Source of the DNA: an uncultured Candidatus Saccharibacteria bacterium
GTDB lineage: Bacteria; Patescibacteriota; Dojkabacteria; J137
Reading direction: 5' to 3'
Length of the DNA: 64,000 nucleotides
Assembly: GCA_965230975.1 (NCBI GenBank)
Contig: OZ246402.1
Coordinates: forward strand, 444,667-508,666
The position numbers were made by a program, and so were the translations under genes. Shown here in pieces: positions 30,713-48,687 of this stretch. Each line of letters opens with the position of its first letter. Within the stretch, counting starts at the first letter, position 1. Below the pieces are notes generated by a model that did no database searches, was not told the origin of the DNA, and saw nothing but the letters and a program-made list of their open reading frames with translations.

Positions 30713-30764
30713 ATGTTTAGATATAAAAATAATAATCTAATTCTACACCTAAACTTCAATTTAA

Positions 30765-32159
30765 CTATGAATTTGCGGATAATTCAGCATATCTATTTGA
30801 AAGTAGCTTATAGTATTTCCCCCTCCATGCAATAAGTGTTGCTATAAGTCCAATTACGCCAGCAATGGTGAATACAAGTGCTATTCCTCTCCCGTCCCCT
30901 GTTCCAAACCACGAACCAATAAGATTAGCTCCATTACCACCATCTCTCATAAAAGGAATAAATATTAGCTGAGTGATTGGTCCAATAGCAAATGCCATTA
31001 AAGGTGAAGCCGCTTGTTCAATACTTTGAGAAAACCCAAAAACTCTACCTAATCTATCTTGAGGCACTACTTTTTGAATAATTGTATGCTCAGATGCTTC
31101 AATGAAGGGCACTATAGTTAAATAAACAAAAGCGCCAATTGCAAAAAGAATAATAGATGGTTGAAGTGTAAATATAGCACTCACAAACCAAATAACTGAG
31201 TTTGCAAGAAATAGAGTTTTTACAGGATTTTTACCTAAGCCTCTTGTTGCAATTAATGTACCACCAACCATAAAGGCTAAACTCAAAAATCCCCAAAGCA
31301 AACCCCAAACCCTAACATCTACCAAAGATAATCCGTAAGCGTCCATTAAAGACATAAAAACCCCTCCCAAAAAGTTATTAAAAGTTGTAAAAAATATTAA
31401 AGGAAAAAGTCCAGGTGTTTGTTTAATTATTTTAATTGTACCTTTAATATCTAGACTTTTTAAATTTGCATCAGTTGAATTTGCCTCTGGTTCAGAATTG
31501 TTATTTTGTTCTTTAACAGGTTCGGGTAGTTTTAAAAATTGTAGGTGTAAAATTGTTCCCAAAGTTATAATTATTGGTATTAATAATGCCCAAAACATTC
31601 CGTTAATTGAAACTAGAAAGCCACTAATAACTGATACAACTAAAAAAGCAATACCTGAAGATGTTCCTACTAACCCGTTAGCTTTATCTAATTTATCTTT
31701 AGGGACTAGCATTGGAACTATTGTTGGAATAGCAATACCTCTTAAATTACCTGCCAAAACTCCAAATAATATTAAAATTATAAAGACCCAAAAGATTGGG
31801 TTGTTAATGTTTTTAAAAGATTCTGCAGGAGCTAAAACATAAATAATAAATCCAAGTATAAAAATAACTAAAGATATGCAACTTGAAATAATCATTATTA
31901 ATTTTTTGTTGTATTTATCTACCAATCCACCAAACCAAATACTAGTAAATGCAACAGTTATTAAATAAACTCCGGACATAACAGACGTAGCGATAACGGA
32001 ATTTGTTTGCAAATATGCAAAGAAGGTTAGGGCAAACCAAACGGTCATGTTTGCTAGAGCACCAATAACATTGTTAATAAGTAGCTGATAAAAATTACGC
32101 ATAGTTTTTTGTTTAAGAAAATATAAATATAATTTACGTATACCATTGGTAGCAAGCAA
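30765..32159 (-). CDS. MFS transporter
   Basis: About 12 TM helices with a central cytoplasmic loop. Confidence 0.8.
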   Translation of the reverse strand: MLATNGIRKLYLYFLKQKTMRNFYQLLINNVIGALANMTVWFALTFFAYLQTNSVIATSVMSGVYLITVAFTSIWFGGLVDKYNKKLIMIISSCISLVIFILGFIIYVLAPAESFKNINNPIFWVFIILILFGVLAGNLRGIAIPTIVPMLVPKDKLDKANGLVGTSSGIAFLVVSVISGFLVSINGMFWALLIPIIITLGTILHLQFLKLPEPVKEQNNNSEPEANSTDANLKSLDIKGTIKIIKQTPGLFPLIFFTTFNNFLGGVFMSLMDAYGLSLVDVRVWGLLWGFLSLAFMVGGTLIATRGLGKNPVKTLFLANSVIWFVSAIFTLQPSIILFAIGAFVYLTIVPFIEASEHTIIQKVVPQDRLGRVFGFSQSIEQAASPLMAFAIGPITQLIFIPFMRDGGNGANLIGSWFGTGDGRGIALVFTIAGVIGLIATLIAWRGKYYKLLSNRYAELSANS

Positions 32160-32320
32160 AACTAGATTTTATAGTAAGTTTTAAACTATTACTATGCTTT
32201 ACAAATAATTTACATATCTAAAAATGATATTTTTCTAGGGAAATTAAACAAAATGAGAGGGGCCAAAGACTTTGTCTTTGGCCCCTTGGTGTACGTTTTC
32301 AAATATTTAAGCGCTTTAAT

Positions 32321-33400
32321 TTAACCTTCAAGTTGATCTGCTTGACCCGCCGCTTTTAAAATTCCATTAATAACCCCTGGGTTTGCATCTAAAACAATAT
32401 ATTCCAAATACTTCTTGTATATCTTTTGCATAAATGCGATATATTCAGGTGAGGTTGAATCTTCTAATACTAAACCAATAAGATCTGAAATTTCTAAAAG
32501 TAAGTTAAAAGAAAGAGTAGAGGGTAAATTAGATTTACTTACATTTGTCAAAAGATCAGTAATTTCATTGTCGATTCTTTCAAGTCCAGACAAACCATAA
32601 GTTCTATAAATTTCACCAGCATTTATTAAGCTTGCCCAAATTAATTGAAAATCTTCTGTGAATTGACTACTGCAATCTATAAAGCTTAATTTACCATTAT
32701 AAATAGTAAATTCTGAGTTATCGCTATCCTCTGGACTACCTTTCAGGTTTCTCCAGTTTTTATGCACTTCAAGTAAAAATGCAGTAACTTGAGAATATTC
32801 TTTTGATTGTAAAATTCTTAATAATTCTTTAATTCTACTGGCATTTTTTACTTCAAATATCTGCCCTCTTAAATTTGCTAATAACCAAACTTGGTTAAAA
32901 TTAAGAGAATTACTGTTTATGTCAGCTGCACTAATTCCACAATGCCTCATAACTAGTTGTGCATTCTTTGCCCAAGCAGTATTAGAATTTAAACCATTAG
33001 TAGCAATATCTCTAAACCACGGCTCAAATAAATCATTTGGTAATTGATGTAAATAAGACACGTCTATTTTTATAAGTTCTGAAGTTAAGTCATCTTGCAA
33101 AACTTTAATAAACTCCTCTTTGGTAAGTGTATCTAAATGACTTGCAACATACAGAACAGTTTTAAATGGCATTATCCAAGGGTGCCCTAGCATCTCACCT
33201 TTAAACCCTAATTCTGCGCCAACTTTTTGACGTTGAGGATAAGGTACTGATGGTACTGTTGCATTTAATTTACTTATAAGCCATGTATTATGTCCTTCTG
33301 CAGGTAATGCAAGGTCAATCTTTTTTTTACCCGCTTCTTCTTGCATACTTACAATCATCCTGTTATAAGAATCTATCTCTTTGTATCCTGTTGTATTCAT
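32321..33400 (-). CDS. Hypothetical protein
   Basis: 359-aa soluble ORF with no motif, divergent from the wHTH regulator. Confidence 0.5.
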   Translation of the reverse strand: MNTTGYKEIDSYNRMIVSMQEEAGKKKIDLALPAEGHNTWLISKLNATVPSVPYPQRQKVGAELGFKGEMLGHPWIMPFKTVLYVASHLDTLTKEEFIKVLQDDLTSELIKIDVSYLHQLPNDLFEPWFRDIATNGLNSNTAWAKNAQLVMRHCGISAADINSNSLNFNQVWLLANLRGQIFEVKNASRIKELLRILQSKEYSQVTAFLLEVHKNWRNLKGSPEDSDNSEFTIYNGKLSFIDCSSQFTEDFQLIWASLINAGEIYRTYGLSGLERIDNEITDLLTNVSKSNLPSTLSFNLLLEISDLIGLVLEDSTSPEYIAFMQKIYKKYLEYIVLDANPGVINGILKAAGQADQLEG

Positions 33401-33462
33401 ATAATATATTAAAAATTAATACTTGGATTATCTATCAGTATAGCTTTTGAAGATTGACAAAC

Positions 33463-33492
33463 AATGTCTAAATTGTGTTGAATTTAGACATT
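33463..33492. promoter_or_regulatory. Perfect 12-bp inverted repeat AATGTCTAAATT-gtgttg-AATTTAGACATT next to a TTGACA hexamer; probable operator in a divergent promoter region
   Basis: TTGACA at 33454-33459 immediately precedes the palindrome. Located between the divergent genes 32321-33400 and 33554-34684. Confidence 0.4.
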
Positions 33493-33553
33493 TAAGGCTA
33501 ATTTACAATAAAAAATGGTAAAATGCTGAAAATCATTCTACAAAAGGCTTAAA

Positions 33554-34684
33554 TTGCAAATGAATATTTTAAAAGAAGAAGTTATAAATTTATTGTACCA
33601 GGGAATCAGCCCTTTGGTAATTGGCTTTCAAGATGATGGTTTATATTACCTATTTGATAAACTTTTACAAGGTAGACCAAAATCAACAGGTTACGACCCA
33701 ACAACTACTTTTGTCCACATTACTTTAAACTATCTTTCAAACATCAATGTTAACTCTATAGAAAATGAAATTAACAAAGAGCTTTTAGAAGATAATTTTG
33801 AGGGAGATAATATTCCTGAAACCTTATTAAATGTAGATTTTGTAACATGTGTTGTAGATGACTTAGCATCATGTGAAAATGTTCCTTTGGCAATAGAGTC
33901 TTGTGATAATTTAATTAAAAGGTATAGAAACAGAGTTCGATTTGTTTACATAGCAGAAGACCCGCTTATTATAGAAAAAAATCTTCATAAAATATCTGCT
34001 CACTCCTCGTTTTTTGAAGCAGAATTGTATCAAAGAATTGGTGTCAGTTGGGATATTGAAAACTTAAAATCAATAATGCTTAACGATTATAAAGTTTCTT
34101 TAAACGAATCTGAAATTCAAGAAATTACTAAACTTAGTAACAATCATTTTGGAACTTTTAAAAGACTATATAAAGATAAATCTTTAAATCTGATTACGGC
34201 CAATAGATACATCTCTTTATTAGCAGAAACTTTCAAACCGGAAGAACTAAATGCTTTAAAAAAGTTACAAAAGAACTTGCCATTAGAAGATACAGAGCAA
34301 AATATAATAAGTGCCTTTACAAAGGTTAACTTGGTACAAAGCAATAAAATAACTATTCCATTGTTAAACGATTACATTCAGGGCAACGTTGTTGTCAATA
34401 AAATCCAGCTACAAGAACAAAGATTGGTAGGGTTAGATTTAAATCTACTAACACAAACAGAAAGAAGCTTAATTCAAGAAATGTTAACAACAGAAGAACC
34501 TGTTTCTAAAGAAAGAGTTGGTGAAATTATTTGGAAAGACAAAGTTAATGATAAGTTTTCCATTTGGGCCGTAGATCAAAGAATTGCTAGATTAAGAAGA
34601 AAACTTATGGATTTAAGTTTTGATATTGATATTCAATCAATTTATGGAAAAGGTTTTAAAATTGTTAAAATACCAAAATTATGA
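33554..34684 (+). CDS. Transcriptional regulator with a C-terminal OmpR/PhoB-type winged-helix DNA-binding domain and a non-receiver N-terminal domain
   Basis: C-terminal TERSLIQEM...VDQRIARLRRKL...IQSIYGKGFKI matches the trans_reg_C pattern. N-terminal ~270 aa are unassigned. Confidence 0.55.
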   Translation: MQMNILKEEVINLLYQGISPLVIGFQDDGLYYLFDKLLQGRPKSTGYDPTTTFVHITLNYLSNINVNSIENEINKELLEDNFEGDNIPETLLNVDFVTCVVDDLASCENVPLAIESCDNLIKRYRNRVRFVYIAEDPLIIEKNLHKISAHSSFFEAELYQRIGVSWDIENLKSIMLNDYKVSLNESEIQEITKLSNNHFGTFKRLYKDKSLNLITANRYISLLAETFKPEELNALKKLQKNLPLEDTEQNIISAFTKVNLVQSNKITIPLLNDYIQGNVVVNKIQLQEQRLVGLDLNLLTQTERSLIQEMLTTEEPVSKERVGEIIWKDKVNDKFSIWAVDQRIARLRRKLMDLSFDIDIQSIYGKGFKIVKIPKL

Positions 34685-35121
34685 ATAATTATGTAGATTA
34701 CAAACAAGAAATTAAAGTTGCGGTTGATTCAGTTTGCATTGCAACTGTTAACAACGAAAATTTTGTACTAATGATTAAAAGGGTTTACCCACCTTTCAAA
34801 GATAGTTGGGCTTTGCCAGGTGGTTTTTTGTTAAACACAGAGGAGTTAGAAGAGGGGGTATTAAGAGAATTAAATGAAGAGACTAATCTAGATACAAGTG
34901 ATTTAAATCCAATAAAAATTGATGTGTTTGGTAAAGTTGGCAGAGACCCAAGAAGGCGAATAATCTCAGTTGCTTATTTAATTAAATTAAAAGAGTTAAA
35001 AGATATTTCATTATCTAACGAAACAACTGAAGTTAAATGGGTGCCTTTAAAAGAAATTGAAAATTATCCATTGGCTTTTGATCATAAAGAGATCTTACAA
35101 AAAGCGTTAGAAATTTTATAA
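34681..35121 (+). CDS. NUDIX hydrolase
   Basis: Nudix box GGFLLNTEELEEGVLRELNEETNL. 4-bp overlap with the upstream regulator gene. Confidence 0.85.
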   Translation: MNNYVDYKQEIKVAVDSVCIATVNNENFVLMIKRVYPPFKDSWALPGGFLLNTEELEEGVLRELNEETNLDTSDLNPIKIDVFGKVGRDPRRRIISVAYLIKLKELKDISLSNETTEVKWVPLKEIENYPLAFDHKEILQKALEIL

Positions 35122-35162
35122 AACCCATTCTTTAAGCAAATTCTCAGATAAACTTTCTGGAA

Positions 35163-35193
35163 TTTACACTTTATTTACACTTCCTTTACGGCA
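35163..35193 (+). promoter_or_regulatory. Three direct repeats TTTACACTT / TTTACACTT / TTTACGGCA at 11-bp period; probable OmpR-family response-regulator binding site (autoregulation)
   Basis: Lies 45-75 bp upstream of the response-regulator start. Confidence 0.45.
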
Positions 35194-35237
35194 TTTAACA
35201 AAAAAAAGTTAAAATATAACCATATTTAAAATAATCT

Positions 35238-35924
35238 ATGATTCCAAAAATAATAGTGATAGAAGATGATGCCGATCTTCTTCAATACCTTCAAGATACA
35301 TTAAAAAACAAGGGGGAATATGATGTAACTGGCTTTCAATCAGGAACGGAGGCAATAACATACTTTAAAAAAAATAGACCAAATTTGGTAACGCTGGACC
35401 TTAACCTTATAGACGTAAGGGGCGAAACAGTTTTAAAAGCTATAAGAGAAATGTATTCTGATTTACCCGTAATTATCCTTACAGGGGAACAGGCCCCTGA
35501 AACGCTAGTCGCAAACTTTAATTTAGGGGCAGATGATTATGTTGTAAAGCCTTTTAACGCAGATGAGCTTTTAGCTAGAATCTCTGCAAGGTTAAGGTCC
35601 AGTCAAAACGGAATTGCAAGCAATGTTTTAACTGCAAAAAACATATCTTTAAATCTTGAGACCTTTGACCTTCAAAAGAATGAAAACAAAATCCCATTGA
35701 CCGGAAAAGAATTTGAATTACTTAAGTATTTGCTTATTAACAAAAATAGAGTATGTACAAGAGAAAAAATCCTATTTTCTGTATGGGGTTATAACTCTGA
35801 AGTAGATACAAGGGTTGTAGATGTGTTTGTAGGTAAACTTAGAAAAAAACTTAAAGAAATAAATGAGAGAGAAGATTATATTATTGAATCTGTTTGGGGC
35901 TATGGTTATAAAATCGAAGATTAG
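35238..35924 (+). CDS. OmpR-family response regulator
   Basis: Receiver domain (DD at 10-11, D54 in LVTLDLNL, K in VKPF) plus a C-terminal wHTH (EFELLKYLL, VWGYGYKI). Confidence 0.9.
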   Translation: MIPKIIVIEDDADLLQYLQDTLKNKGEYDVTGFQSGTEAITYFKKNRPNLVTLDLNLIDVRGETVLKAIREMYSDLPVIILTGEQAPETLVANFNLGADDYVVKPFNADELLARISARLRSSQNGIASNVLTAKNISLNLETFDLQKNENKIPLTGKEFELLKYLLINKNRVCTREKILFSVWGYNSEVDTRVVDVFVGKLRKKLKEINEREDYIIESVWGYGYKIED

Positions 35925-36072
35925 TTGTAAAGTCTAATTCAGTAAATTAATACTACAAAGGCTTATTACTTAAAATTTAATATAGAGTATAATTAGAAAC
36001 CCTCTATTTTTTAAAACTTGTTTCATTAGAAAGAGTTTATTAAAACAATCGATACAAGTTTTTGTAAGCTTA

Positions 36073-37857
36073 TTGCGATCTTTTATAAGTCCTTTTCTTA
36101 CAACAATTATTTTTGTAATTTCAAGATCGCTAATCCCTTTACCAGAAAATACAAGTATTTATTTAGGGTTAACACTTTTAATATTTCTGCATTCCTGGTT
36201 TGGGGGTTTTTATTCTGGAGTATTAGCTACTGTTCTTACAGTATTTGCTACAAACTTTTTCTTTTCAAGCAATTTAACTAATATTTCCGGTGTTTCATTG
36301 TCGTGGGTCTTAACAACATTAGTTTTTATAGCACAATCGATAGTACTATCTTTTTTAACCTCATTATTTGCTAAAAGAATTAAAAGAGAGATCTTTTTTA
36401 AAAAAAACCTGGAGTATAAAGAGTCAATGTTAAAAAACATTATAGATTCTGTTTATGGATTTATAGTTGTGACAGATGAGAAAGGAAACATTATTGAAAG
36501 TAATAACTCATATTTACAATTTCAAAAATATAGTGATACCTTACTGGGCTTGAGTATTTTTGATACATACCCATGGAAAAATAATATCAGATTAGGAAGC
36601 GATCTTAGAGAGTGGTTTGACTATGCAACTATTTATGGAGAGTTTAAATCAGATCAAGAATTTAGATTTGGGTCGCAAAAGAAATATTATCACATTAACA
36701 TAGCAACCATCATCTCAGATTATAAGGGTAAATCAAGAAAGTTATACATACTATCTGGTATAGATATAACCGATAGAAAGGTTTATGAGCAAGAGCTATT
36801 AGTTGCAAAAGAAAGTTATAGAAAATTAGTTGATTCGAATGTAGTAGGTATGACAATAGAAGATTCGAATGGAGTTGTCTTAGAGGCAAACGATGCTTTT
36901 TTAAAGCTTGTAGGATACACTTTAGCCGATTTTACAAAGAATAAGATTACTAGAAGGTCAATTACACCAACGGATTACTATAGACATATTGAGCAAGCTA
37001 ATAATTCACTAAAACAAAAAGGTTTTTCTACTCCTTTTCAAAAGGAGTACATAAAATCAAATGGAGAAAGAGTACCTGTACTAGTGTCTAGTGTGTTAAT
37101 TGATGAAAAAAACATGAAGTCATTAAGTCTCACAGTAGACTTAACTGCACAACAAAAGGTAATGAATTTAAAAGATGAGTTTATAGGAGTAATTACTCAC
37201 GAACTAAAAACTCCTTTAATGACTTTACAAGGTTACGTAGATATTTTATCTAAAAATTTAGAAACATCTGACCCTAAAGATTTAAAAAAATTTATTGATA
37301 TTATTGGAAGGCAAACTGAAAGGTTAAATAAATTAGTTTTTGATTTAATTGATTTTATAAAATTATCCAAAGACAAGTTAGTTTTAAATATTGAAAATTT
37401 TGATATTGTAGAGTTTTCTAAAAGAATTGCTGATGAAATAGATTTGCTTAATACCACTCATAAAATAACTTTAAAGTCTGAAAGCACATCATTATTTGTT
37501 TCTGCGGACCCTTATAGAGTTGAACAGGTTATTACAAATCTTTTAACAAATGCTATAAAATTTTCCCCACAAGATAAAGAGATAATCGTAATTATAGAAG
37601 ATCTTGAAAAGAAGGTGAAAATTTCTGTAACAGATTTTGGAGTAGGTATTTCTAAAGAAGATATGCCGCTTGTCTTTAATAAATTCTTTCAATCAAAATC
37701 GCAACCTTTACCAAGACAATTAAATAAAAGTATGGGTCTTGGCTTGTATATATCATCTGAAATAATAAAAAAACATAAAGGTAAAATAGGTGTCACAAGT
37801 GAACTAACTAAAGGTACAACTTTTTACTTCACGCTTCCTAAATCTGCACATCAATAA
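36073..37857 (+). CDS. Sensor histidine kinase with membrane anchor and PAS domains
   Basis: N-terminal TM helices, two PAS-like regions, the H-box ITHELKTPL, and the HATPase N, D/G1 and G2 boxes. Confidence 0.9.
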   Translation: MRSFISPFLTTIIFVISRSLIPLPENTSIYLGLTLLIFLHSWFGGFYSGVLATVLTVFATNFFFSSNLTNISGVSLSWVLTTLVFIAQSIVLSFLTSLFAKRIKREIFFKKNLEYKESMLKNIIDSVYGFIVVTDEKGNIIESNNSYLQFQKYSDTLLGLSIFDTYPWKNNIRLGSDLREWFDYATIYGEFKSDQEFRFGSQKKYYHINIATIISDYKGKSRKLYILSGIDITDRKVYEQELLVAKESYRKLVDSNVVGMTIEDSNGVVLEANDAFLKLVGYTLADFTKNKITRRSITPTDYYRHIEQANNSLKQKGFSTPFQKEYIKSNGERVPVLVSSVLIDEKNMKSLSLTVDLTAQQKVMNLKDEFIGVITHELKTPLMTLQGYVDILSKNLETSDPKDLKKFIDIIGRQTERLNKLVFDLIDFIKLSKDKLVLNIENFDIVEFSKRIADEIDLLNTTHKITLKSESTSLFVSADPYRVEQVITNLLTNAIKFSPQDKEIIVIIEDLEKKVKISVTDFGVGISKEDMPLVFNKFFQSKSQPLPRQLNKSMGLGLYISSEIIKKHKGKIGVTSELTKGTTFYFTLPKSAHQ

Positions 37858-37953
37858 AAACAACTAAATCATTAATGCTTTACCCATTATTTACAGTTAG
37901 TTAATTAAACTTTTTATTAATAAAGGTATTCTAACTCTAGTTAAGAAAAAGTT

Positions 37954-38235
37954 ATGCAAATGTCTTTGCAAGATATAAACTTAGTACTTTCAATAATTTT
38001 GCAATTAATACTAATAGTAGGGTTATTTGTTTTATTTGCTTCTTTAATTAGTTTTATTAATAAACTTAATAAAACTGTTAAGTCTGTTAGTAATGCTAGT
38101 AAGCAAGCTACTACATTTTTGGAATCTAAATCATTAAAACAGGATTATATGGATTATTTTAAGAATTCTATTAAGTATTTTGCAGGTAAATCTATATTAA
38201 ACATGATTTATAAGTATAAAGATAAGTACGTATAA
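37954..38235 (+). CDS. Small hypothetical membrane protein
   Basis: 93 aa with one TM. Confidence 0.4.
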   Translation: MQMSLQDINLVLSIILQLILIVGLFVLFASLISFINKLNKTVKSVSNASKQATTFLESKSLKQDYMDYFKNSIKYFAGKSILNMIYKYKDKYV

Positions 38236-38279
38236 AAATTATAGTTCTGATAGTTATTAATTATTTTTTAATATTTTTT

Positions 38280-38561
38280 ATGAGAGATAACAATTCAAAT
38301 AGCGTAGGTGGTTTATTTATGGGATTTGTTGTTGGTTTAGTAGTCGGTGCTTTATTTGGATCTTCAGATGAATATAAAGGCAAGTTTAAAGAGGCAAAAA
38401 ATAGAGTTTCTTCAATTGCATCAGATCTTGCAAGAAATACAGAGGATGTTGCAGATAAAGTAGCATCAAAAGTAGAGGAGTTTAAAGATGATGCAGAAGA
38501 GAAGAAGGATGAGGCGAAAAGTAGAATTAGTAATAAAGTTAATGAAGTAACTCAAAAGTAA
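38280..38561 (+). CDS. YtxH-like small protein (membrane anchor plus charged helix)
   Basis: N-terminal hydrophobic segment (GLFMGFVVGLVVGALFG) then a K/E-rich helix. Confidence 0.45.
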   Translation: MRDNNSNSVGGLFMGFVVGLVVGALFGSSDEYKGKFKEAKNRVSSIASDLARNTEDVADKVASKVEEFKDDAEEKKDEAKSRISNKVNEVTQK

Positions 38562-38570
38562 TAGTAAATT

Positions 38571-38601
38571 TCTAGAGGGAAGCATTAATCTTCCCTCTAG
38601 A
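38571..38601 (+). terminator. Perfect 12-bp stem-loop directly after the stop codon; lacks a clear U-tract
   Basis: TCTAGAGGGAAG-cattaat-CTTCCCTCTAGA. Confidence 0.4.
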
Positions 38602-38803
38602 AGTAAATAAGATTATCTTCTACTTGATTCATCTCTCTTTTCATTGTCTGGTTCTCTTTCGACTTATCTTGGTTGTTTATTACTAGCTTTTTTCTTTCTG
38701 AATTTTCATTTCCTGCCATATTGGTTACCTACTTTCTTTATGGTTAAAGCTTTCTAAAATAGAGATATTAAGATGGAATTGTAAAAATAATAGCAAAATT
38801 ATG

Positions 38804-38832
38804 TTTATCACCTGTGCAGTAGGTGATATAAT
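38804..38832 (+). promoter_or_regulatory. Putative extended -10 promoter for tRNA-Gln (TTATCA-16 bp-TGaTATAAT)
   Basis: TG at 38824-38825, TATAAT at 38827-38832. A 6-bp inverted repeat TCACCT/AGGTGA sits in the spacer. Confidence 0.35.
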
Positions 38833-38871
38833 CTGCATGCAATTCTTGTCAAGGTAAATGCTATTTTACAT

Positions 38872-38942
38872 TGCGGGTTCGTCTAATGGTAGGACAGCGG
38901 CCTTTGGAGCCGCTGATTGGGGTTCGAGTCCCTGACCCGCAA
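38872..38942 (+). tRNA. tRNA-Gln (anticodon UUG)
   Basis: Acceptor TGCGGGT/ACCCGCA, anticodon stem GCGGC/GCCGC with loop CTTTGGA, T-arm TGGGG-TTCGAGT-CCCTG, discriminator A. No encoded CCA. Confidence 0.8.
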
Positions 38943-38943
38943 A

Positions 38944-39801
38944 TTATATTTCCCAGTCTCTATAAGTTAGATCTTCCCTGTAAATATCGTTACCATTCTT
39001 TAATGAACTGATCCTAGTTTGAAGTCTTTGACTAGTAATGGGTAGGTTATTTAGATAGTCTATTGAATAACCGTAACTTTCCACTAACTGAATAAATGCA
39101 ATACCCCAATCAGGGCTACCAATAATTTTTTTTATGCATAAATAGTCGTATACTGTTTGGCTCAGAAGATTTTCAAGATTTCGCAGATTCCCAAAAAAGT
39201 TGAAAAAGTTTGAGATATTTCCGAAATCAGGGTCGAAATCTATAAAATGAATCTGCACACTATCAGTTATGTCAAGTTGATCAAGTTTCATATCACACAA
39301 ACTATCAGTTATGACAAGTTGATCAAGTTTCATATCACACAAACATGGAATATTTAGGTGAAATGAGTTTAAAAAATAATCAAACAATGAGAGGTACAAC
39401 GCTTCAAGTGTTTTAGTTAAGCAATCGAGTTGTGATTGAGCTTCTATCTTTTTTAAACCAGTGGAGTTATTAACTAAATTAATCAAATTGCTTAGTTTTT
39501 CTAAAATCCCAGATCCCTCAATTTTTTCAGATAAATAAGTTAGATCACCTTCGTTATCAACAAAGTATGTTTTGGGTAGCTCTAGACCAGTATAATAATG
39601 AAACCGCTTTAATATCGATTCGTGAAGTTCACGTAATCGATACGCTTCTTCTTCACTTCCAAACAGCAATTTATTTCGTAAAACCCAGATCTTAGAGTCG
39701 TTATCTTGCATCAAAGTCAGCCCATTAGATTCGTCAAATTCCCACTGTTCTTGGGTATTCTTTAGCTGTTTTAATTTGTCTAATTCAATATCTATAATCA
39801 T
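38944..39801 (-). CDS. Hypothetical protein with protein-kinase-like motifs and an in-frame 14-aa tandem duplication
   Basis: CDMKLDQLVITDSL / CDMKLDQLDITDSV tandem repeat resembling a kinase catalytic loop (D-x-K-x-x-N/Q), followed by IDFD. The gene's 3' end abuts tRNA-Gln. Confidence 0.5.
   Translation of the reverse strand: MIIDIELDKLKQLKNTQEQWEFDESNGLTLMQDNDSKIWVLRNKLLFGSEEEAYRLRELHESILKRFHYYTGLELPKTYFVDNEGDLTYLSEKIEGSGILEKLSNLINLVNNSTGLKKIEAQSQLDCLTKTLEALYLSLFDYFLNSFHLNIPCLCDMKLDQLVITDSLCDMKLDQLDITDSVQIHFIDFDPDFGNISNFFNFFGNLRNLENLLSQTVYDYLCIKKIIGSPDWGIAFIQLVESYGYSIDYLNNLPITSQRLQTRISSLKNGNDIYREDLTYRDWEI
39260..39343. repeat. Two tandem copies of a 42-bp unit inside the CDS (one mismatch)
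   Basis: ctatcagttatgTcaagttgatcaagtttcatatcacacaaa repeated with a single T to A change. Confidence 0.9.
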
Positions 39802-39978
39802 GCGTGGATTTTAGCATAGTAGTTTAGTCCATACACCTACTGGTACCAATTTCGTAGCATTTGAATCACTTTTAGTATCAAAACTTAACATTCTGGTACC
39901 ACAAGGTAAGGGTGTCGTTTTGTAGTCCTCTATCTATCTCAAGTTAACTCTTAATTAAACAACAGATACCTTAAAAAA

Positions 39979-40872
39979 ATGCATCATTCACTAAACAAAT
40001 TTACCCAAGTTTTAAGATATAATTACCTTATGAACCTTTTAGATATTCCAGATAAAAACCTTAAAACAACACTACTTGGTGGACAGGCTTTTAATTGGGA
40101 TCTAATAGGAGATTCTTTTTATGGTTTCTTTAAAGATTTTGTAATTAAAATCTCAATTATAGATGGAAAGTATTATTGGCAAACATTCCCAGAACCCAAC
40201 AGGTTAGATTTAATAGAAGAGTATTTTGATTTAAATACAGATTATTTTGGTCTTAAAAGTCTTATTAATAAAGATGTTCATATTGTTAATGCTTTGAATC
40301 ATGTGCAAGATGTTAGAATCTTAAATCAAGATTTTGAGCAAACTTTACTTTCTTTTATTTTAACTTCTCATAAAAACATTAAGGCAGTTAGAAAACTTGT
40401 TAGAGACTTATCTAAATATTTTGGAAATTCAATTAAAGTTGATGGTATTACTTTTTATACATTCCCATCTGCTGTAAAAATTTCAAATTCTTCTGAGCAA
40501 AAATTAAGGGAGTTGGGGGCAGGTTTTAGATCTAGATATTTATTAGAAGCTTCTTTAAAGTTAACTTCAGAGTTGCCTAAGTTTCAAGATCTGTCAGAAA
40601 ATGAGATTAGAGCTTTTTTAACTTCGTTTAAAGGGGTAGGTGATAAAATTGCAGATTGCGTTATGGTGTTTTCTTTAAAACAACGTGGTGTGACCCCTTT
40701 AGATATTTGGGCAAAACGTGTTTTGGTAGATTTGTATGGTGTAGATTCAAAAATGAATTACGAAAGAATGAGAGGTTGGTATAAAGATTATTTTGGGGAT
40801 TATACTGCTTTTGCAGGTCAGTACTTGTTTGAATATTATAGAGAGACTTATTCTTCTAGCGTTAAAAATTAA
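39979..40872 (+). CDS. 8-oxoguanine DNA glycosylase / HhH-GPD family N-glycosylase-lyase (Ogg-like)
   Basis: HhH-GPD motif LTSFKGVGDKIADCVMVF with the catalytic Lys and Asp. Confidence 0.75.
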   Translation: MHHSLNKFTQVLRYNYLMNLLDIPDKNLKTTLLGGQAFNWDLIGDSFYGFFKDFVIKISIIDGKYYWQTFPEPNRLDLIEEYFDLNTDYFGLKSLINKDVHIVNALNHVQDVRILNQDFEQTLLSFILTSHKNIKAVRKLVRDLSKYFGNSIKVDGITFYTFPSAVKISNSSEQKLRELGAGFRSRYLLEASLKLTSELPKFQDLSENEIRAFLTSFKGVGDKIADCVMVFSLKQRGVTPLDIWAKRVLVDLYGVDSKMNYERMRGWYKDYFGDYTAFAGQYLFEYYRETYSSSVKN

Positions 40873-41032
40873 AAGTAGTGAATATATTTATAAGAGCACA
40901 AAACTTTTTAGTTTAGCATATTTTTTTATTTCTCCAAAAATTGAAATTTTTTCTAATAAAAACAGTCTATAGGGTGTTACCAATTTTTAAGAACGAGTTA
41001 AAATACTGGCATTACTTCAGCATAATAATTTT

Positions 41033-41383
41033 ATGAGTGATAATTCCCGAAATATGGGCGTACCCTCAACTTTACGTGAACACTTTACACCAGAAATGGA
41101 TTGCATAGTTCCTATGGCAAATTGTACTTTTGATTCTATTTCCGGTTTACCACTAACTTTGGGTAATTTAAAGGTGCACCAAGATGAGTGGGGTAATTTA
41201 ATGGTATTTAAAGATAATAACTGGCATTTAATCTCTGTACTTACACCTGGAATTTCATATATTATTAGTGATTCAGTAGTAAATTTCTATGAATTAGGAA
41301 GACTTGGCAACCCTGAGATTTATCAATGTAATTTTGTACCAGACGAAGTTAAGGCAAAAAGAAAACCACAATCTGAAGCATAA
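41033..41383 (+). CDS. Hypothetical protein
   Basis: 116-aa ORF. Confidence 0.4.
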   Translation: MSDNSRNMGVPSTLREHFTPEMDCIVPMANCTFDSISGLPLTLGNLKVHQDEWGNLMVFKDNNWHLISVLTPGISYIISDSVVNFYELGRLGNPEIYQCNFVPDEVKAKRKPQSEA

Positions 41384-41409
41384 TTACATTTATTACGTTA
41401 ATATTTTAT

Positions 41410-41712
41410 ATGAAGAATAGATTTAAAGACAGAACTCGTCTTGCAACTGCCGATGAAGAAGAATATGTTGAACAACCAGTCAAACACATTTCGAATAAGA
41501 AAAAACTTAGAAATTTAGGATTAGGCGGAATTTGGTCAGCGATACGAGCAGAAGATGGCAATATATGGGTAAACTACTATGGAGAACCTTGTATTGTTGA
41601 ACAAAATCCTGTTTACATGATAACTCCACTCGGACAGCCACCAGTGCCTATAGAAATCCATTTCACGCTAGTTGATGATGAACCGTGGGGATTTGGACCT
41701 ATAGAACTCTAA
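41410..41712 (+). CDS. Hypothetical protein
   Basis: 100-aa ORF. Confidence 0.4.
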   Translation: MKNRFKDRTRLATADEEEYVEQPVKHISNKKKLRNLGLGGIWSAIRAEDGNIWVNYYGEPCIVEQNPVYMITPLGQPPVPIEIHFTLVDDEPWGFGPIEL

Positions 41713-42386
41713 TCACAAATTTTGCCGTTCTCAAACTTTATTTTTCTTGTGGCAATCTCTTGAATTCTTTGATCGTGGCTAACAATTACAACACTTTTAC
41801 CCTGTTCAAAAGCAATCTCTTTTAATAAATTCATAACCTCTTCACCATTTCCCGAATCTAAATTAGCTGTAGGTTCATCTGCAAGAATAATTTCTGGGTT
41901 GTTAATCAATGCCCTGGCAATAGCAACTCTTTGTTTCTCTCCTCCACTTAAATTCTTTGGTAAATGATTAATTCTTTTATCAAGTTTTAATCTTTTTAAA
42001 ATAGACCTTGCTTCTTGTTCTGCGTCAGCTTTGGAAATACCTTTAATAAGTAAAGGTGTAATTACATTCTCTAAAACATTTAAAGATGAAAACAAATTGA
42101 AAGATTGAAAAATAAAGCCAACATTGTTTAATCTGTAATAAGTAAGTTGGTTCTCACTTAGCTTTGCAATATTCTTTCCCTCAAAATCTATAGTCCCAAA
42201 TGAAGGTCTTAATAAGCCACCCAACATACTAATTAAGGTTGTTTTACCACTGCCAGATGGGCCAATAATCAACAAAATTTCTTCTTTGTAAACTTCCAAA
42301 GATACATTATCAACTGCTTTAACCAAGGTATGCCCTTTCCCAAAAGTCTTTTTTAAATTTTTTGCAGTTAATACAGTTTGCTTCAT
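41709..42386 (-). CDS. ABC transporter ATP-binding protein (MacB/LolD-type)
   Basis: Walker A GPSGSGKTT, signature LSGGEKQRVAIARA, Walker B ILADEPTANLD. Confidence 0.9.
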   Translation of the reverse strand: MKQTVLTAKNLKKTFGKGHTLVKAVDNVSLEVYKEEILLIIGPSGSGKTTLISMLGGLLRPSFGTIDFEGKNIAKLSENQLTYYRLNNVGFIFQSFNLFSSLNVLENVITPLLIKGISKADAEQEARSILKRLKLDKRINHLPKNLSGGEKQRVAIARALINNPEIILADEPTANLDSGNGEEVMNLLKEIAFEQGKSVVIVSHDQRIQEIATRKIKFENGKICD

Positions 42387-42388
42387 AT

Positions 42389-43498
42389 TTAAGATTTAAA
42401 AACCACAGCTGGGTCAATGTTTGCAATCCGTTTTGCAGGAATCAAAACACTTAATGCGCTCATAAATAAAGATGTCGCAATAATGAATATTAAAATATTT
42501 GCATCAATTTTTACTTCTAGAAACGGAATGGATATTTTCAAAATCTCTCTGACAATAAAAGAACATAGTATCCCAAAGAAAATTCCAAATGCAGAAAACA
42601 TAAGGGATTGTTGCAGTAGCAATTTGTAAAACTTAAAGTTATTCATTCCAATAGCTTTTAAAACTCCAAATTCTGTTTGTTTATCTAGTGTTGCGGTATA
42701 GATTGTTAATCCAATAATTGCTGTGCCAACTAAAAATCCAATAACTACAATTGCCATAACAATTGGTAAAAAGGTTTCTTCTAAAACATTTAAATTTAAA
42801 TTAATAAATTCTGATTTTTTAATTACATTTATGTTAGAACTTAGTTTTTCAATCTCAGCCATAGCAACATCCACATCTGATTTATCACTTATACTAATAA
42901 ATAGATAGTTTGTAATATTAGGAACTTTAATTAACTCTTTGCCTTTAGATTTAGTGATAAACCCGTAGTAAGCATTAATAAAACTAGATCTTTCGATAGT
43001 TCCGGCTATAGTAAAGTCTGTATCGTAAATTTGGATAGTATCATTTAGTTTTAGATTATTCTTTTTTAAAAAATCTTCTCCAAGAATTATTTGGTTATCT
43101 GTAATTTTTAAGGTTCCACTAACTAAATCCCATGGCTTTCCAATTTGAGAATCGTCCTCGTAAGTTGTTAGTGTTAGTACACTTCTAACTCCATGCTTTT
43201 CAAAAGAGGCTTTAATTTGAATAATGCCGGCAACCTCTTCTACACCTTTTATATTTTTTATCTTCTCTTGGATATTATCTTGAATTATTGATGTTCCAAT
43301 GAACATATCTTTAACACCTTCTTGGGTTACAACCAAATCTGCAGGTGTTTTTTGTACATATCTTACAAATTGGTCTGACATACCAAAGTAAATCCCAAGC
43401 AATGTGACCATTAGCATTATGGAAAAAGAAACACCAGCTATGCTAATTACAAATTTTAACTTCTCTTGAAAAAGGTTCTTTCTTGCAAGCAAAAACAT
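42389..43498 (-). CDS. ABC transporter permease, FtsX/MacB-like (four TM with large periplasmic domain)
   Basis: One TM, ~200-aa periplasmic domain, three C-terminal TM. Cotranscribed with the ATPase. Confidence 0.85.
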   Translation of the reverse strand: MFLLARKNLFQEKLKFVISIAGVSFSIMLMVTLLGIYFGMSDQFVRYVQKTPADLVVTQEGVKDMFIGTSIIQDNIQEKIKNIKGVEEVAGIIQIKASFEKHGVRSVLTLTTYEDDSQIGKPWDLVSGTLKITDNQIILGEDFLKKNNLKLNDTIQIYDTDFTIAGTIERSSFINAYYGFITKSKGKELIKVPNITNYLFISISDKSDVDVAMAEIEKLSSNINVIKKSEFINLNLNVLEETFLPIVMAIVVIGFLVGTAIIGLTIYTATLDKQTEFGVLKAIGMNNFKFYKLLLQQSLMFSAFGIFFGILCSFIVREILKISIPFLEVKIDANILIFIIATSLFMSALSVLIPAKRIANIDPAVVFKS

Positions 43499-43573
43499 AT
43501 TTTTAAGTTGAATATCTTATTCTCCTATATTTCTAAAAGGGTAGCAATTAAAAATTTAGCCTAGAATAGATAC

Positions 43574-43602
43574 AAAAAGGGCCGACTTTCGTCGGCCCTT
43601 TT
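43574..43602. terminator. Rho-independent terminator (bidirectional), functional for the minus-strand gene 43617-44558
   Basis: AAAAA-GGGCCGAC-TTTC-GTCGGCCC-TTTT. Confidence 0.8.
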
Positions 43603-43616
43603 AAATGAAAATTCCT

Positions 43617-44558
43617 TTATTTTGATTCTGCTTTAGTTGAAATATAACTTAGGCTTGAATCAGATTCTATAATATCTCTAAATACTAATCCGCTAAATCT
43701 TGGGTAAAAGAAAAAGCTGTAATATGTTGAAATAACTGTAGAAACATAATTTACAACAAACATTGCAAATGTAAACAATATAGGGCTTACTAAAGAGAAG
43801 ACTCCAGCTATTGCACCTCCAACACCACCAAGTATTCCAACAACAAATCCAGTAGCAATACTTACCAAAAGTAATCCTAACAATTCTGGTTTATGTCTCA
43901 TAGCTAAATCCCAATTGTCTTTTAATTTAAATGCCTCTGAGAATGTATTTGTTGCAACCAATCTTAATAAGCCTGGCGTAACAATAAAGTATGAAAGAAC
44001 TGCTAGAACAGCAAGAATTGCCAAGAAAAGAATCCCAAAAAAGCAAACAAGTAATAAATAAATGCCATTAAGATTATTTAGGCTAGATAGCCCGTTTGTA
44101 GAAAACGCACCTCCGCTTAAAAGCATTATTGCAATAAGAAATACGCCTGCTATTAATGCAACAATAGTACCAATAACCAAACCGTAAATTGTAGATGCTA
44201 GTAAATATTTTAAAGATCTTTTTAATTTGTCTGCAAAATTGGCACCCCAAAGAGTTGTAGTTGCTCTTTTTTGAATTCCAGACTGAGTAGATTCATAGGT
44301 ATGCCAGCTACCAACAATAAGTGTTGGAATGACAAGTAAGCATACTATACAAGAGACTATTGCACTAAATAATGCTGTAGCAGAGTTTGTATTGTAAGAA
44401 CTTCGTAAATATCCATTGCTGTTAAAGCTTAATGTAGAGTTATCTGTAAATATTGATGGTAACGAGATTAAAAGTGTAAGAGCAAATGGTAATAGCATTT
44501 TAAGTGCCCAGTTCTTTTCTTTAAACAAAAATGTTAAAGAATCTTTTATTTTATCCAT
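43617..44558 (-). CDS. Hypothetical polytopic membrane protein
   Basis: 313 aa with about 6-7 TM helices. Confidence 0.5.
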   Translation of the reverse strand: MDKIKDSLTFLFKEKNWALKMLLPFALTLLISLPSIFTDNSTLSFNSNGYLRSSYNTNSATALFSAIVSCIVCLLVIPTLIVGSWHTYESTQSGIQKRATTTLWGANFADKLKRSLKYLLASTIYGLVIGTIVALIAGVFLIAIMLLSGGAFSTNGLSSLNNLNGIYLLLVCFFGILFLAILAVLAVLSYFIVTPGLLRLVATNTFSEAFKLKDNWDLAMRHKPELLGLLLVSIATGFVVGILGGVGGAIAGVFSLVSPILFTFAMFVVNYVSTVISTYYSFFFYPRFSGLVFRDIIESDSSLSYISTKAESK

Positions 44559-44640
44559 AAAGAAATATAAAATTTAAATATAAGTAAGTATATCACCAAT
44601 GGTTATAGCTTTCGAGAAAAATTTTAGTGAAGTTTTAGTC

Positions 44641-45051
44641 TTATAAAAAGTTAGTAATAGTAGAGAGTTCTAGCTTTTTATTTTTAAGATAATCGGAATA
44701 TCCAATAAGTTGACCAGGTCTAAACTGATCTTTGAGATTGTTTATTTGAGATTTATCCATCCAGTGAATACTTTGTATCTCGTCTGTAGGCATAAATTGA
44801 TCTTCTTTAATATATTTTGCTTTTATTCCAATTCCTAAAGCTCCAGGTATTAAGTAAAACCCTATAATATATTCGACTTCAATTTGGGCATTGGTTTCTT
44901 CTAAGACTTCTCTAATAGAAGCACTTTCGATGCTTTCGTTATTCATAACATGACCACCAGGAAAGCTATATTGTCCGCTTGACTCTTTCACTACAAGAAA
45001 TTTATTATCCTTTTCTACAATAACTCCAACCCCAACAAATATTTGATCCAT
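44641..45051 (-). CDS. NUDIX hydrolase
   Basis: Nudix box GGHVMNNESIESASIREVLEETN. Confidence 0.8.
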   Translation of the reverse strand: MDQIFVGVGVIVEKDNKFLVVKESSGQYSFPGGHVMNNESIESASIREVLEETNAQIEVEYIIGFYLIPGALGIGIKAKYIKEDQFMPTDEIQSIHWMDKSQINNLKDQFRPGQLIGYSDYLKNKKLELSTITNFL

Positions 45052-45052
45052 G

Positions 45053-46123
45053 TTATAAATCCCTTTTAATCATATAATCTGCAATGCCTTCTAAAAAAGC
45101 TCTGCCTTCTGGTTTCCAGTGAATGTGGTTTGTTGCAAGGCAACTTTCTGCAGATTTTACATAATTTAATGCTTTTTCTTTGCAGTAATCTAATGCCCCG
45201 CATTCTCTGATTATTTTTCTTGCCTCTTCTAGCTCTGTTTTTGTTATGTTTGGATTTCCTAGCAATTCTAAAAACCTCTTTTTAGTTTTGCCATGAGTCA
45301 TTTTGATAGTTCTTACAGTTAGTAAGTTTTGCTTACCTTCTTTTAAATCTGAATCCTCTGGTTTGCCTAGTTTTTCAGCATCACCAAACATTCCTAAAAT
45401 ATCGTCCTGTATTTGATACGCTATTCCAGCAGGTATTGCATATTCAGAAAGGGCTTTTAAGTCTTTTTCACTAGCACCTGCTAAAATTGCTCCAACGTAA
45501 AGTGGATTTTCGTAAGTGTACTTGGCTGTTTTTAATAAATTAATTTGAATTGCTTCGTATTCAGTAACTGTATCTTTTACCTCTGCTAAAACATCTAAAG
45601 CTTCTCCATAACCTGTGTATGCTAATCCTAAATTGAATTCACTCATAGCTTTAACAATTCTATCTGAATCCAAGCCGGAGTGGAGTAGTATATTTTCGGC
45701 AATATGGTTTAAAATTATACCTGCGCAAATTGCCATAGATTCCCCAAAGTGTCTACTATCTTTCTTTTTAAAGTGTTTAGCGTGGTAGTCCTGATAAATC
45801 TTGTGCACAGTTTCTTTTTTGTGTCTAATGTCATCTTGGTCAATAATATCATCCATAATCAGTATATAGATGTGTATTAGTTCTACAAATGCAGATGCTT
45901 TTAAAATTTTATCTTTTTCTGTCCCACCAAACATTAAGTAGCTATAGTAGGTAAGTGCTCCCCTAAGTCTTTTCCCGCCATGGGCTAGTGGAATAATATT
46001 TTGTACCATCTCTTTAATGAAGGGGGAGACATGTTTGGAGTGCTTAAACTCGTACTGTAGGTTTTCTTCAACAATTTTGTCTATTATTGGCGCCAATTCT
46101 GCTAAAGCTTTTTTTGCTTCCAT
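45053..46123 (-). CDS. Short-chain (E)-polyprenyl diphosphate synthase (FPP/GGPP synthase type)
   Basis: First aspartate-rich motif LIMDDIIDQDD, second IQDDILG. An aromatic Tyr 5 residues before the first motif suggests a short-chain C15-C20 product. Confidence 0.85.
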   Translation of the reverse strand: MEAKKALAELAPIIDKIVEENLQYEFKHSKHVSPFIKEMVQNIIPLAHGGKRLRGALTYYSYLMFGGTEKDKILKASAFVELIHIYILIMDDIIDQDDIRHKKETVHKIYQDYHAKHFKKKDSRHFGESMAICAGIILNHIAENILLHSGLDSDRIVKAMSEFNLGLAYTGYGEALDVLAEVKDTVTEYEAIQINLLKTAKYTYENPLYVGAILAGASEKDLKALSEYAIPAGIAYQIQDDILGMFGDAEKLGKPEDSDLKEGKQNLLTVRTIKMTHGKTKKRFLELLGNPNITKTELEEARKIIRECGALDYCKEKALNYVKSAESCLATNHIHWKPEGRAFLEGIADYMIKRDL

Positions 46124-46284
46124 ATTGACTTGCTGCTATCAATATACATTCAGTTGTTAAATAAAATAATTTACCAAATATAATTGACAACACGACTGTC
46201 GTAAATTTTAACATTTGCGAATGCATAAGTCTAGCGGTTTTATCCGCTTTTTAAATATCATTTAGTCTGTCAAGCCTGACAAGA

Positions 46285-46551
46285 TTAAATTTGCCATTTT
46301 ACAATCAAGGTGTAGTTTTTTAGGTAGTTATCTAGTTCGGTGTTTGCACAATAAAATCTAAATGGCAGAGCATTTGTAGGGTATTTTTTTATTGTGTAAT
46401 AATCCAGTTTGATTTGTTGAGTAATATTTTGTGAAATTAAATTTTCAGGTGCTTTTTTAATTATCCAATTTAAATACTGGTTAATATTGCTATATGTTTT
46501 GCCTTTTCTGTAGTCTTTGAGTTGATTTTGGTTTGTATAGTATATGTACAT
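46285..46551 (-). CDS. Hypothetical small protein (doubtful)
   Basis: 88-aa Tyr/Asn-rich ORF in a 580-bp spacer. Confidence 0.25.
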   Translation of the reverse strand: MYIYYTNQNQLKDYRKGKTYSNINQYLNWIIKKAPENLISQNITQQIKLDYYTIKKYPTNALPFRFYCANTELDNYLKNYTLIVKWQI

Positions 46552-46632
46552 TTCGTTTTGTTTAAATATGGTTTGATTTTAAAAAATGAAGAGTTTTTTG
46601 TCTTTGTATTCAAAAACAATGTGTTTTACGCC

Positions 46633-46659
46633 TAAATTTGCGTTATGGCACAATGTGAC
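46633..46659 (+). promoter_or_regulatory. Recurrent motif TAAATTTGCGTTatgGCACAATG upstream of the APH-like gene
   Basis: 21 of 27 nt identical to the site at 47621-47647. ATTTGCG cores are also present at 46214-46220 and 48484-48490. Confidence 0.4.
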
Positions 46660-46702
46660 TTCTTTTTAATTTTGATACAATTCGTAATTAATATTAAAAC
46701 CA

Positions 46703-47623: not shown

Positions 47624-47647
47624 ATTTGCGTTGCGACACAATGCAAG
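47621..47647 (+). promoter_or_regulatory. Second copy of the TAAATTTGCGTTgcgACACAATG motif upstream of the XRE-GAF regulator gene
   Basis: See the site at 46633-46659. Confidence 0.4.
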
Positions 47648-47718
47648 TCCTTGTATTTCTTGCTAATATCTTCAAGTCATATTTGTCAACAACTGTTGGA
47701 ATAAGTTAAAATCCTTAA

Positions 47719-48480: not shown

Positions 48481-48687
48481 GTAATTTGCGAGAAATATAC
48501 ATAAGAATTAGGGCATCAATTGCTAAATCAAAAAATTGCTGAGATACTTATACAAAGATTTGTATAGCTTAAAACTTAATTTATTAGACTTAAGGAATAA
48601 TGGTAATAAAATTTATACTAAACCAATTATAATCTTAAACATAGAATAACTCTTATATATTACTTATTTAATATAACTATTTCTGAT

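Follow-up and report, generated by a model that had tools for sequence, protein, structure and literature searches.

What kind of gene lies between tRNA-Gln and the gene for 8-oxoguanine DNA glycosylase (OGG) in an uncultured Candidatus Saccharibacteria bacterium, and what is to be made of the near-perfect tandem duplication that it carries? The gene, a 285-codon open reading frame (ORF) that belongs to no known family and is called the orphan gene here, resides in a 64,000-nucleotide stretch of contig OZ246402.1 (assembly GCA_965230975.1, positions 444,667 to 508,666 of the forward strand). This whole stretch is hereafter termed the window, and all coordinates refer to it unless a different contig is named. 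A first-pass annotation made from the sequence alone had described the gene as kinase-like, with a duplicated catalytic centre, and had placed it at the boundary of a genomic island. We consider it likely that the orphan gene is a single-gene allelic cassette, replaced wholesale among strains that are otherwise ~99% identical, and that the version present in the window (allele A) has had the most conserved block of its protein doubled. The hypervariable gene is more informative than the duplication itself, which is a mutation of an ordinary type, and the kinase label is not sustainable.

Allelic variation between tRNA-Gln and OGG

The source of the window has two near-identical counterparts, strains of the same species represented by L007 and L031. 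OGG exhibits 98.6-98.7% amino acid identity in these comparisons and a histidine kinase (HisK) exhibits 99.8%, while tRNA-Gln shows no difference in the part that is available; relative to L007, the DUF4013 and APH proteins are 98.4% and 91.5% identical, respectively. The protein encoded by the orphan gene shares only 40-41% of its amino acids with its counterparts in L007 and L031.

The transition between similarity and divergence is abrupt. The window and L031 align without interruption from 30943 to 38957 at 98.55% DNA identity, which amounts to 99.4% in the left flank (38000-38957), falls to 52.8% in the ORF body (measured over 38958-39798) and returns to 98.8% in the right flank (39802-40400). 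Mismatches begin at 38958 and end at 39792, such that the edges of the divergent segment are found at 38957/38958 and 39792/39793 and the difference is limited to codons 4-281, with M-I-I at the start, W-E-I-stop at the end and both flanks alike in the two strains. The same pattern of conserved edges and a divergent ORF body is observed with L007. A family alignment reveals that WEI is kept in all alleles, and the segment 38944-38957, which contains these codons, also provides the convergent tRNA-Gln with its 3' trailer.

Synonymous divergence (dS) in the orphan gene is 1.77, compared with 0-0.028 in five neighbouring genes. The value for the orphan gene exceeds those of the neighbours by a factor of 60 or more, which mutation in place cannot have brought about. 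In addition to divergence far above that of the flanks and sharp boundaries, the locus has an allele phylogeny that is incongruent with the flanking genes. At minimum three versions of the gene exist, which are deeply divergent (40-56% amino acid identity), and allele A is nearer to the version carried by a different species, L001 (56% identical, with HisK 67% identical), than it is to allele B of its own species (40%). We infer that a diversity-generating retroelement is not responsible for this variation, since the divergence spans the whole ORF and not a short variable region near the C-terminus. Contigs from other runs end at or inside the locus (L006, L007 and L032); such endings may reflect strain mixtures and prove nothing.

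Each allele is a constrained coding sequence under purifying selection and the gene is real, because the ratio of nonsynonymous to synonymous divergence (dN/dS) between alleles is 0.23-0.29 and identity by codon position follows the order 2>1>3. The window protein is acidic and soluble, with an isoelectric point (pI) of 4.5 and a maximum KD19 below 1, and the family alleles have pI values of 4.5-6.5 and no hydrophobic segment. A hydrophobicity scan of the window protein found neither a transmembrane segment nor a signal peptide, and the product is predicted to be cytoplasmic.

Relatives of the orphan gene are scarce. An exhaustive phmmer search of 1.84 billion representative sequences recovered one relative (P0001), a permissive profile search recovered one more (P0122, an example of allele B), and cluster look-ups added the near-identical sequences P0127, P0125 and P0126. 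Together with the window protein, these six sequences form three allele groups, and they constitute the three known alleles of the family among ~15 billion proteins. No further members were found in genome contigs, in two scans of metagenome contigs or in two scans of viral contigs, and no family member was found by tblastn of phage and plasmid collections. From these searches, the family is known only from a narrow lineage of Patescibacteria, the candidate phyla radiation (CPR), where it occupies one position between tRNA-Gln and OGG. The window protein itself was not returned by homology searches because it has been clustered, at 90% identity, under a representative to which it is unrelated, a 38-amino-acid hypothetical protein of Bacillus licheniformis. 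This grouping is a clustering artefact that is relevant to other orphan proteins too.

A second strain-variable segment is located beyond OGG, at 41014-43609. Two small ORFs (116 and 100 amino acids) are present there in the window, L031 and L032, along with an ABC ATPase in the window and L032 (the L031 contig ends before it) and an FtsX permease in the window. At the corresponding position, L007, which is otherwise 94-98% identical, has 891 nt of unrelated sequence that contain two different small ORFs (141 and 111 amino acids).

The in-frame 42-bp duplication

The first-pass annotation had called attention to a 42-bp in-frame tandem repeat whose units differ by one base, and this description is borne out. 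Tandem Repeats Finder reports a repeat at 39259-39344 with a period of 42, 2.0 copies, 97% matches, 0 indels and a score of 165, and direct comparison of the units at 39260-39301 and 39302-39343 reveals a single mismatch (T at 39272 versus A at 39314). A tandem match at 41 of 42 positions can be considered far beyond chance. The repeat is in frame within the 285-codon ORF at 38944-39801, where the segment 39302-39343 encodes CDMKLDQLVITDSL (residues 155-168) and the segment 39260-39301 encodes CDMKLDQLDITDSV (residues 169-182), which is followed by QIHFIDFDPDFG. The underlying DNA change is uncomplicated: TTTGTGTGAT...ACTGATAG has been duplicated head to tail. Microhomology at the breakpoints is only 1-2 nt, and a palindrome, TTGATCAA, occurs inside each unit.

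A comparison of copy number among orthologs, which had been proposed along with the original observation, establishes the direction of change. All other family sequences (five of five) are 271 amino acids long, corresponding to 285 minus 14, and carry one copy of the unit, and therefore the duplication is derived. It spans P-C-L-x-D-M-K-L-D-Q-x-V, the most conserved block of the family. The first copy in the window protein retains every invariant residue. All six family sequences carry Val at position 163, and the Asp that takes its place in the second copy is therefore derived as well.

Tandem repeats can be mis-assembled, which leaves room for the explanation that the duplication was created by the assembler. 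However, independent Logan assemblies of three sequencing runs contain the two units and the identical mismatch, as does the source genome. Among the Logan contigs, those of SRR12762304 (106 kb) and SRR12762303 (43 kb) encode the identical 285-amino-acid protein, which is also found on a 1.19-Mb NCBI contig, and both copies with their mismatch are present on a 3.6-kb Logan contig from SRR12762305 that ends later in the gene. Moreover, owing to the single mismatch, no 31-mer across the repeat occurs twice, and the junction between the copies could not have been supplied by single-copy reads. We accordingly give next to no credence to an assembly artefact, and the duplication does not depend on any one assembly. 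The idea that the unit is a phase-variable repeat was also rejected, as there are only two copies and their number is equal in all three runs.

Table 1. Coordinates of the orphan gene, its internal segments and the adjacent features. Positions are those of the window, except for the last row.
Feature	Position	Strand	Basis or remark
Orphan protein gene, allele A, 285 aa	38944-39801	minus	ORF list
tRNA-Gln(UUG)	38871-38943 (ARAGORN); 38872-42 (Rfam)	plus	Convergent with orphan ORF
Putative sigma-70-like promoter for tRNA-Gln	38805-38832		
42-bp unit, first copy in gene orientation	39302-39343	minus	C155-L168, retains invariant Val163
42-bp unit, second copy	39260-39301	minus	C169-V182; mismatch at 39272 gives Asp177 in place of invariant Val
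Hypervariable ORF body, codons 4-281	38958-39792	minus	~53% DNA identity to allele of same-species strains
Conserved ORF 3' end (W-E-I-stop + 2 nt)	38944-38957	minus	Alleles A/B 100% identical; left cassette edge
Conserved first three codons, M-I-I	39793-39801	minus	Right cassette edge
Intergenic region between orphan gene and divergent OGG	39802-39978		99-100% conserved among strains
OGG, 8-oxoguanine DNA glycosylase (OGG_N + HhH-GPD)	39979-40872	plus	Pfam; synteny anchor
tRNA-Gln in sister genomes	L008 4807-4879; L009 4831-4903; L015 4865-4937	opposite to that in window	

The orphan gene stands alone between OGG, which is transcribed away from it, and tRNA-Gln, which is transcribed towards it (Table 1). 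Its stop codon is 0-1 nt from the 3' end of tRNA-Gln according to ARAGORN and Rfam, in agreement with the 1 nt that had been noted previously. The sequence TGCTAAAAT at 39816-39808 (minus strand) is found 6 nt upstream of the ATG, and there is no Shine-Dalgarno sequence. Likewise, TGCTAAAATCC.CGCATG is found in the different species L001, whose version is TGCTAAAATCCCCGCATG. TGCTAAAAT may be an extended -10 box that would give a leaderless mRNA of the orphan gene. Elsewhere in the window, an ORF at 26989-29451 encodes an 820-amino-acid fusion in which rhodanese, TusA and DsrE-like domains are joined to a pyridine-nucleotide disulfide oxidoreductase, a sulfur-trafficking architecture of the CoA-disulfide-reductase type that is notable in a genome of ~1.2 Mb.

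Alternative readings of the locus and the protein

The nearest genomes outside the lineage that bears the orphan gene are three metagenome-assembled genomes (MAGs) of sister Patescibacteria, L008, L009 and L015, whose OGG proteins are 47-53% identical to that of the window. Each has the order Obg GTPase - tRNA-Gln - OGG - DUF4013, with tRNA-Gln ~100-120 nt from OGG, no gene between the two and no trace of the orphan gene by tblastn. The opposite orientation of the tRNA in these gene-less relatives points to rearrangement and not to site-specific integration. Judging from gene order, the tRNA-Gln/OGG neighbourhood appears to be old and to have been rearranged in the lineage of the orphan gene, which itself appears to be a lineage-specific addition at the rearranged spot beside the tRNA. 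Within this lineage the arrangement is constant. The gap between gene and tRNA-Gln is 4 nt in L001, which carries P0001, and 2 nt in L007, which carries P0122; the same HisK is found beyond tRNA-Gln in L001, and synteny is full in L031.

The abutment of gene and tRNA had been interpreted as a typical island boundary, and the gene could in principle mark the limit of a genomic island that had inserted at tRNA-Gln. Contact with the tRNA 3' end, the presence/absence polymorphism among relatives that is created by the sister Patescibacteria, and a GC content at third codon positions (GC3) that slightly exceeds that of the neighbours (0.287 versus 0.19-0.26) would all be accommodated by such an event. 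However, Pfam reveals no integrase or mobility gene among the 20 neighbouring ORFs (~10 kb), which encode a two-component system, NUDIX, OGG, ABC/FtsX, DUF4013, polyprenyl synthase, APH and other families. No direct repeat of the tRNA-Gln 3' end was found in 30000-50000 or 38850-39950, and there is no shift in GC content, which is 0.315 at 38-40 kb and 0.323 in the orphan gene compared with 0.27-0.34 across the window. Furthermore, the insert would consist of one gene, the abutment is observed with all three allele types, including that of a different species, and the flipped tRNA of the gene-less relatives points elsewhere. We therefore regard an island as improbable. What survives of the idea is a variable spot, in the sense that the gene is absent in sister lineages and the ORF is an allelic cassette within the species, but this spot is not a classical tRNA island. 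An attachment site derived from the tRNA was rejected as well, because there is no tRNA-end repeat and the only tRNA-like piece is an inverted 21-nt near-copy (19/21, with two gaps) of the tRNA-Gln segment from anticodon arm to T-arm, which lies inside the ORF (39103-39122 versus 38904-38923). This piece is specific to allele A, has a P of ~0.005 relative to shuffled sequences and overlaps the conserved P-D-W-G codons, and it is probably a product of chance and coding constraint. A different possibility is that the duplication is disruptive and that the gene is an early pseudogene, in frame but non-functional. A 14-residue insertion inside the family's most conserved block, a radical Val-to-Asp change at an invariant position in one of the copies and the existence of sister lineages that do without the gene all speak for decay, whereas a frame that runs uninterrupted through 285 codons and shows no further lesion, a first copy with all invariant residues, fixation of the same sequence in the assemblies of three runs and a remainder of allele A that lacks excess changes at family-invariant positions speak against it. 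On balance, a pseudogene is unlikely.

The fold of the protein was approached through sequence, profile and structure searches, none of which gave a significant match that would uphold the kinase-fold similarity suggested in the first-pass annotation. Searches with whole proteins against Pfam and NCBIfam (both read to E values up to 10), PHROGs and PADLOC yielded no significant match, nor did Pfam searches with thirds of three alleles (nine segments). A faint match to LxmK, a kinase-like family, covers residues 169-189 with E=1.8 and is below significance. A PADLOC match to RT_UG9_small (E=0.0016) was judged spurious, as it involves one allele only and 50 helical residues. Against PDB sequences, neither single-sequence phmmer nor profile hmmsearch produced a significant match, and the sub-threshold matches were only to YopM, HU, HIRA and IspF. 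AlphaFold2 models have a mean pLDDT of 38.2 for the window protein and 41.6 for a single-copy relative and are unusable; a Foldseek search with the better of the two returned only noise (best E 0.76).

The window also supplies a kinase reference in the form of an APH-family phosphotransferase at 46703-47623 (PF01636, E=1.8e-19), which carries the motifs HTDFNQRN and IDWED and from which a 30-sequence profile was built. BLASTP of the window protein against this APH protein detected no signal, and hhalign of the orphan family against the APH profile gave probabilities of 0.3% and 0.07%. With hmmsearch --max, two single-copy alleles scored ~-2 bits, within the range of shuffled sequences, and the window protein received no score. 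The APH protein itself has many relatives at ~50-60% identity, a few of which are listed under CPR names (Moranbacteria, Zambryskibacteria).

The kinase label had been derived from a D-x-K-x-x-N-like motif and a subsequent IDFD. What holds is that a D-x-K-x-x-Q motif is followed 18 residues later by hydrophobic-D-x-D; what does not hold is the Asn, which is replaced by Gln, and patterns of this kind arise by chance. The residues D156, K158, D160, Q161, D188 and D190 (window numbering; the last two correspond to D174 and D176 in single-copy alleles) are invariant. All alleles carry L-[VC]-D-M-K-L-D-Q, in which the Asp and Lys of a kinase catalytic loop are present, the position of the downstream Mg-binding Asn is an invariant Gln, and no His or Tyr precedes the Asp. 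An Asp of the DFG type is recognizable at the motif level only, as [LF][VI]D[YFL]D located 18 residues after D156 in single-copy alleles. A spacing of 18 residues between the HRD Asp and the DFG Asp is found in PKA and APH(3'). In the window protein, hydrophobic-D-x-D is 32 residues from the Asp of the first copy and 18 from that of the second. The invariant residues K37, R42, K44 and E51/E52 are candidates for the beta-3 Lys and alpha-C Glu, with a spacing that is short and no model that places them. A relaxed two-motif pattern, which was defined after the sequence had been seen, occurs in 0.26% of composition-matched shuffles, and a looser Brenner-like form occurs in 2.7%. An unrelated 192-amino-acid ORF at 61488-62066 contains DPKLVN...LIDFE near its N-terminus, a strict D-x-K-x-x-N...h-D-F-E (where h is hydrophobic) by chance, which implies that kinase-like motifs arise readily in this AT-rich proteome rich in D, K, N, I, L and F.

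How do these observations bear on the proposal that the protein has a protein-kinase-like fold and that the duplication doubles its catalytic loop ahead of a DFG-like IDFD, thereby duplicating the catalytic centre? Invariance of the six motif residues despite 40% overall identity, the rarity of the relaxed pattern among shuffles, the faint LxmK match and the 18-residue spacing, although kept in the window protein by the second copy only, would be expected of a kinase. A length of ~271 amino acids and an order of elements that, by low-confidence DSSP assignment, runs from strands through an EE helix, a hinge-like 'E-K-I-x-G' block and long helices to the motif and a helical C-terminus would also fit a minimal kinase. 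Set against these points are the absence of significant matches to Pfam and NCBIfam kinase families and to the PDB, APH comparisons that are no better than shuffles, the Gln in place of the Mg-binding Asn, the missing His/Tyr, the post hoc nature of a pattern that occurs in strict form by chance, and models without a usable fold. A protein-kinase-like fold for the orphan family is thus a tentative possibility at most, and a duplicated catalytic centre appears doubtful. A leucine-rich-repeat (LRR)-like solenoid, to which the duplication would add one repeat, was suggested by the fact that the best sub-threshold PDB matches of the family profile are to YopM LRRs (positions 142-208, E 0.26-0.34) and that LDQFVISENHL in allele B fits L-x-x-L-x-L-x-x-N-x-L. 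LRR units comprise 20-29 residues, and a 14-residue unit is therefore shorter than any. This reading was rejected as hardly credible, since the YopM E values are not significant and relaxed motif matches (0-2 per allele, with none in allele A) are no more frequent than in shuffles, which average 0.74-0.78.

Proposed history, meaning and likeness to known systems

The reading that we favour, a single-gene allelic cassette, would have the following history. Homologous recombination across the conserved flanks would have swapped alleles, or an ancient polymorphism would have been kept, or both; either route would imply diversifying or frequency-dependent selection on the protein. In the allele found in the window, a 42-bp duplication, probably the outcome of slippage during replication or of unequal exchange, has doubled the conserved block C-D-M-K-L-D-Q-L-V-I-T-D-S-L, and a single later substitution replaced the invariant Val by Asp, in the second copy alone. 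We lean towards the view that the first copy does the original job, whereas the second is a tolerated and probably surface-exposed insertion of 14 residues. The Val-to-Asp change in the second copy fits solvent exposure. The invariant D-x-K-x-D-Q, together with hydrophobic-D-x-D-P-D 18 residues later, suggests a Mg2+-dependent enzyme that transfers phosphoryl or nucleotidyl groups.

Several points weigh against this account. With three alleles only, recombination and long-term balanced polymorphism are indistinguishable. The enzymatic assignment rests on conserved acidic residues only, with no fold that is supported statistically, and the duplicated protein could be mildly deleterious or could represent the start of decay. 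Evidence on the duplication comes from assembled contigs of three runs, and the accessions SRR12762303-05 are consecutive, such that probably one population was sampled and the runs confirm the sequence but not its spread.

Loci at which divergent alleles are embedded in conserved flanks usually encode recognition or conflict functions in better-studied bacteria. In Patescibacteria, whose genomes are small and which rely on host cells, a role is known for very few strain-variable genes. It is conceivable, albeit as a long shot, that the orphan gene is a hitherto unnoticed determinant of specificity for a conflict system of an episymbiotic CPR bacterium, built on a highly divergent Mg2+-dependent phosphotransferase fold that is undetectable by current libraries, with alleles that are under frequency-dependent selection and swapped via the tRNA-Gln/OGG flanks, and with the duplication of the catalytic motif as a further route to new specificity and not as damage. 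If this were true, the system might serve in phage defence, in interactions between epibiont and host, or in self/non-self discrimination. A literature search on the run accessions and on comparable CPR loci returned nothing useful. Being small and having sharp edges, the locus lends itself to population genomics and biochemistry, and the one-copy and two-copy alleles form a natural pair for testing the conserved motif.

Four groups of known systems provide points of comparison. Like tRNA-associated genomic islands, the orphan gene is lineage-specific, sits beside a tRNA and is absent from sister lineages, but here there is no integrase and there are no att repeats, one gene is involved, its composition is native and all allele types share the arrangement. 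Protein-kinase-like (PKL) phosphotransferases such as APH (PF01636) are of similar length and share an invariant Asp-x-Lys with hydrophobic-Asp-x-Asp 18 residues later, and the N-terminal third of the orphan protein has a candidate Lys/Arg strand and Glu-rich helix. The orphan family differs in that it has no detectable sequence or profile similarity to these enzymes, carries Gln for Asn and has no predicted fold. Internal tandem duplications such as FLT3-ITD and the kinase-domain duplications of EGFR and BRAF are likewise short, in-frame and head-to-tail events that double a conserved segment. By contrast, the event in the orphan gene occurred in a natural bacterial population and not in a somatic clone, it affects an orphan protein, it is accompanied by no evidence for a gain of function, and its second copy has already changed at an invariant position.

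The agr, com pherotype, capsule, O-antigen and restriction-modification (R-M) specificity loci are allelic cassettes with conserved flanks. The orphan cassette differs from these polymorphic specificity loci in that it consists of one gene, with edges that fall within its own first three and last four codons, and in that its product, predicted to be cytoplasmic, falls outside the known families and lacks a partner gene, in a CPR bacterium. It is like them in having divergent alleles (dS ~1.8) between near-identical flanks (dS of at most 0.03), and in having an allele tree that disagrees with the flanking genes. In its cassette behaviour the locus thus appears to resemble polymorphic specificity loci, here in a single orphan cytoplasmic gene of a CPR bacterium.

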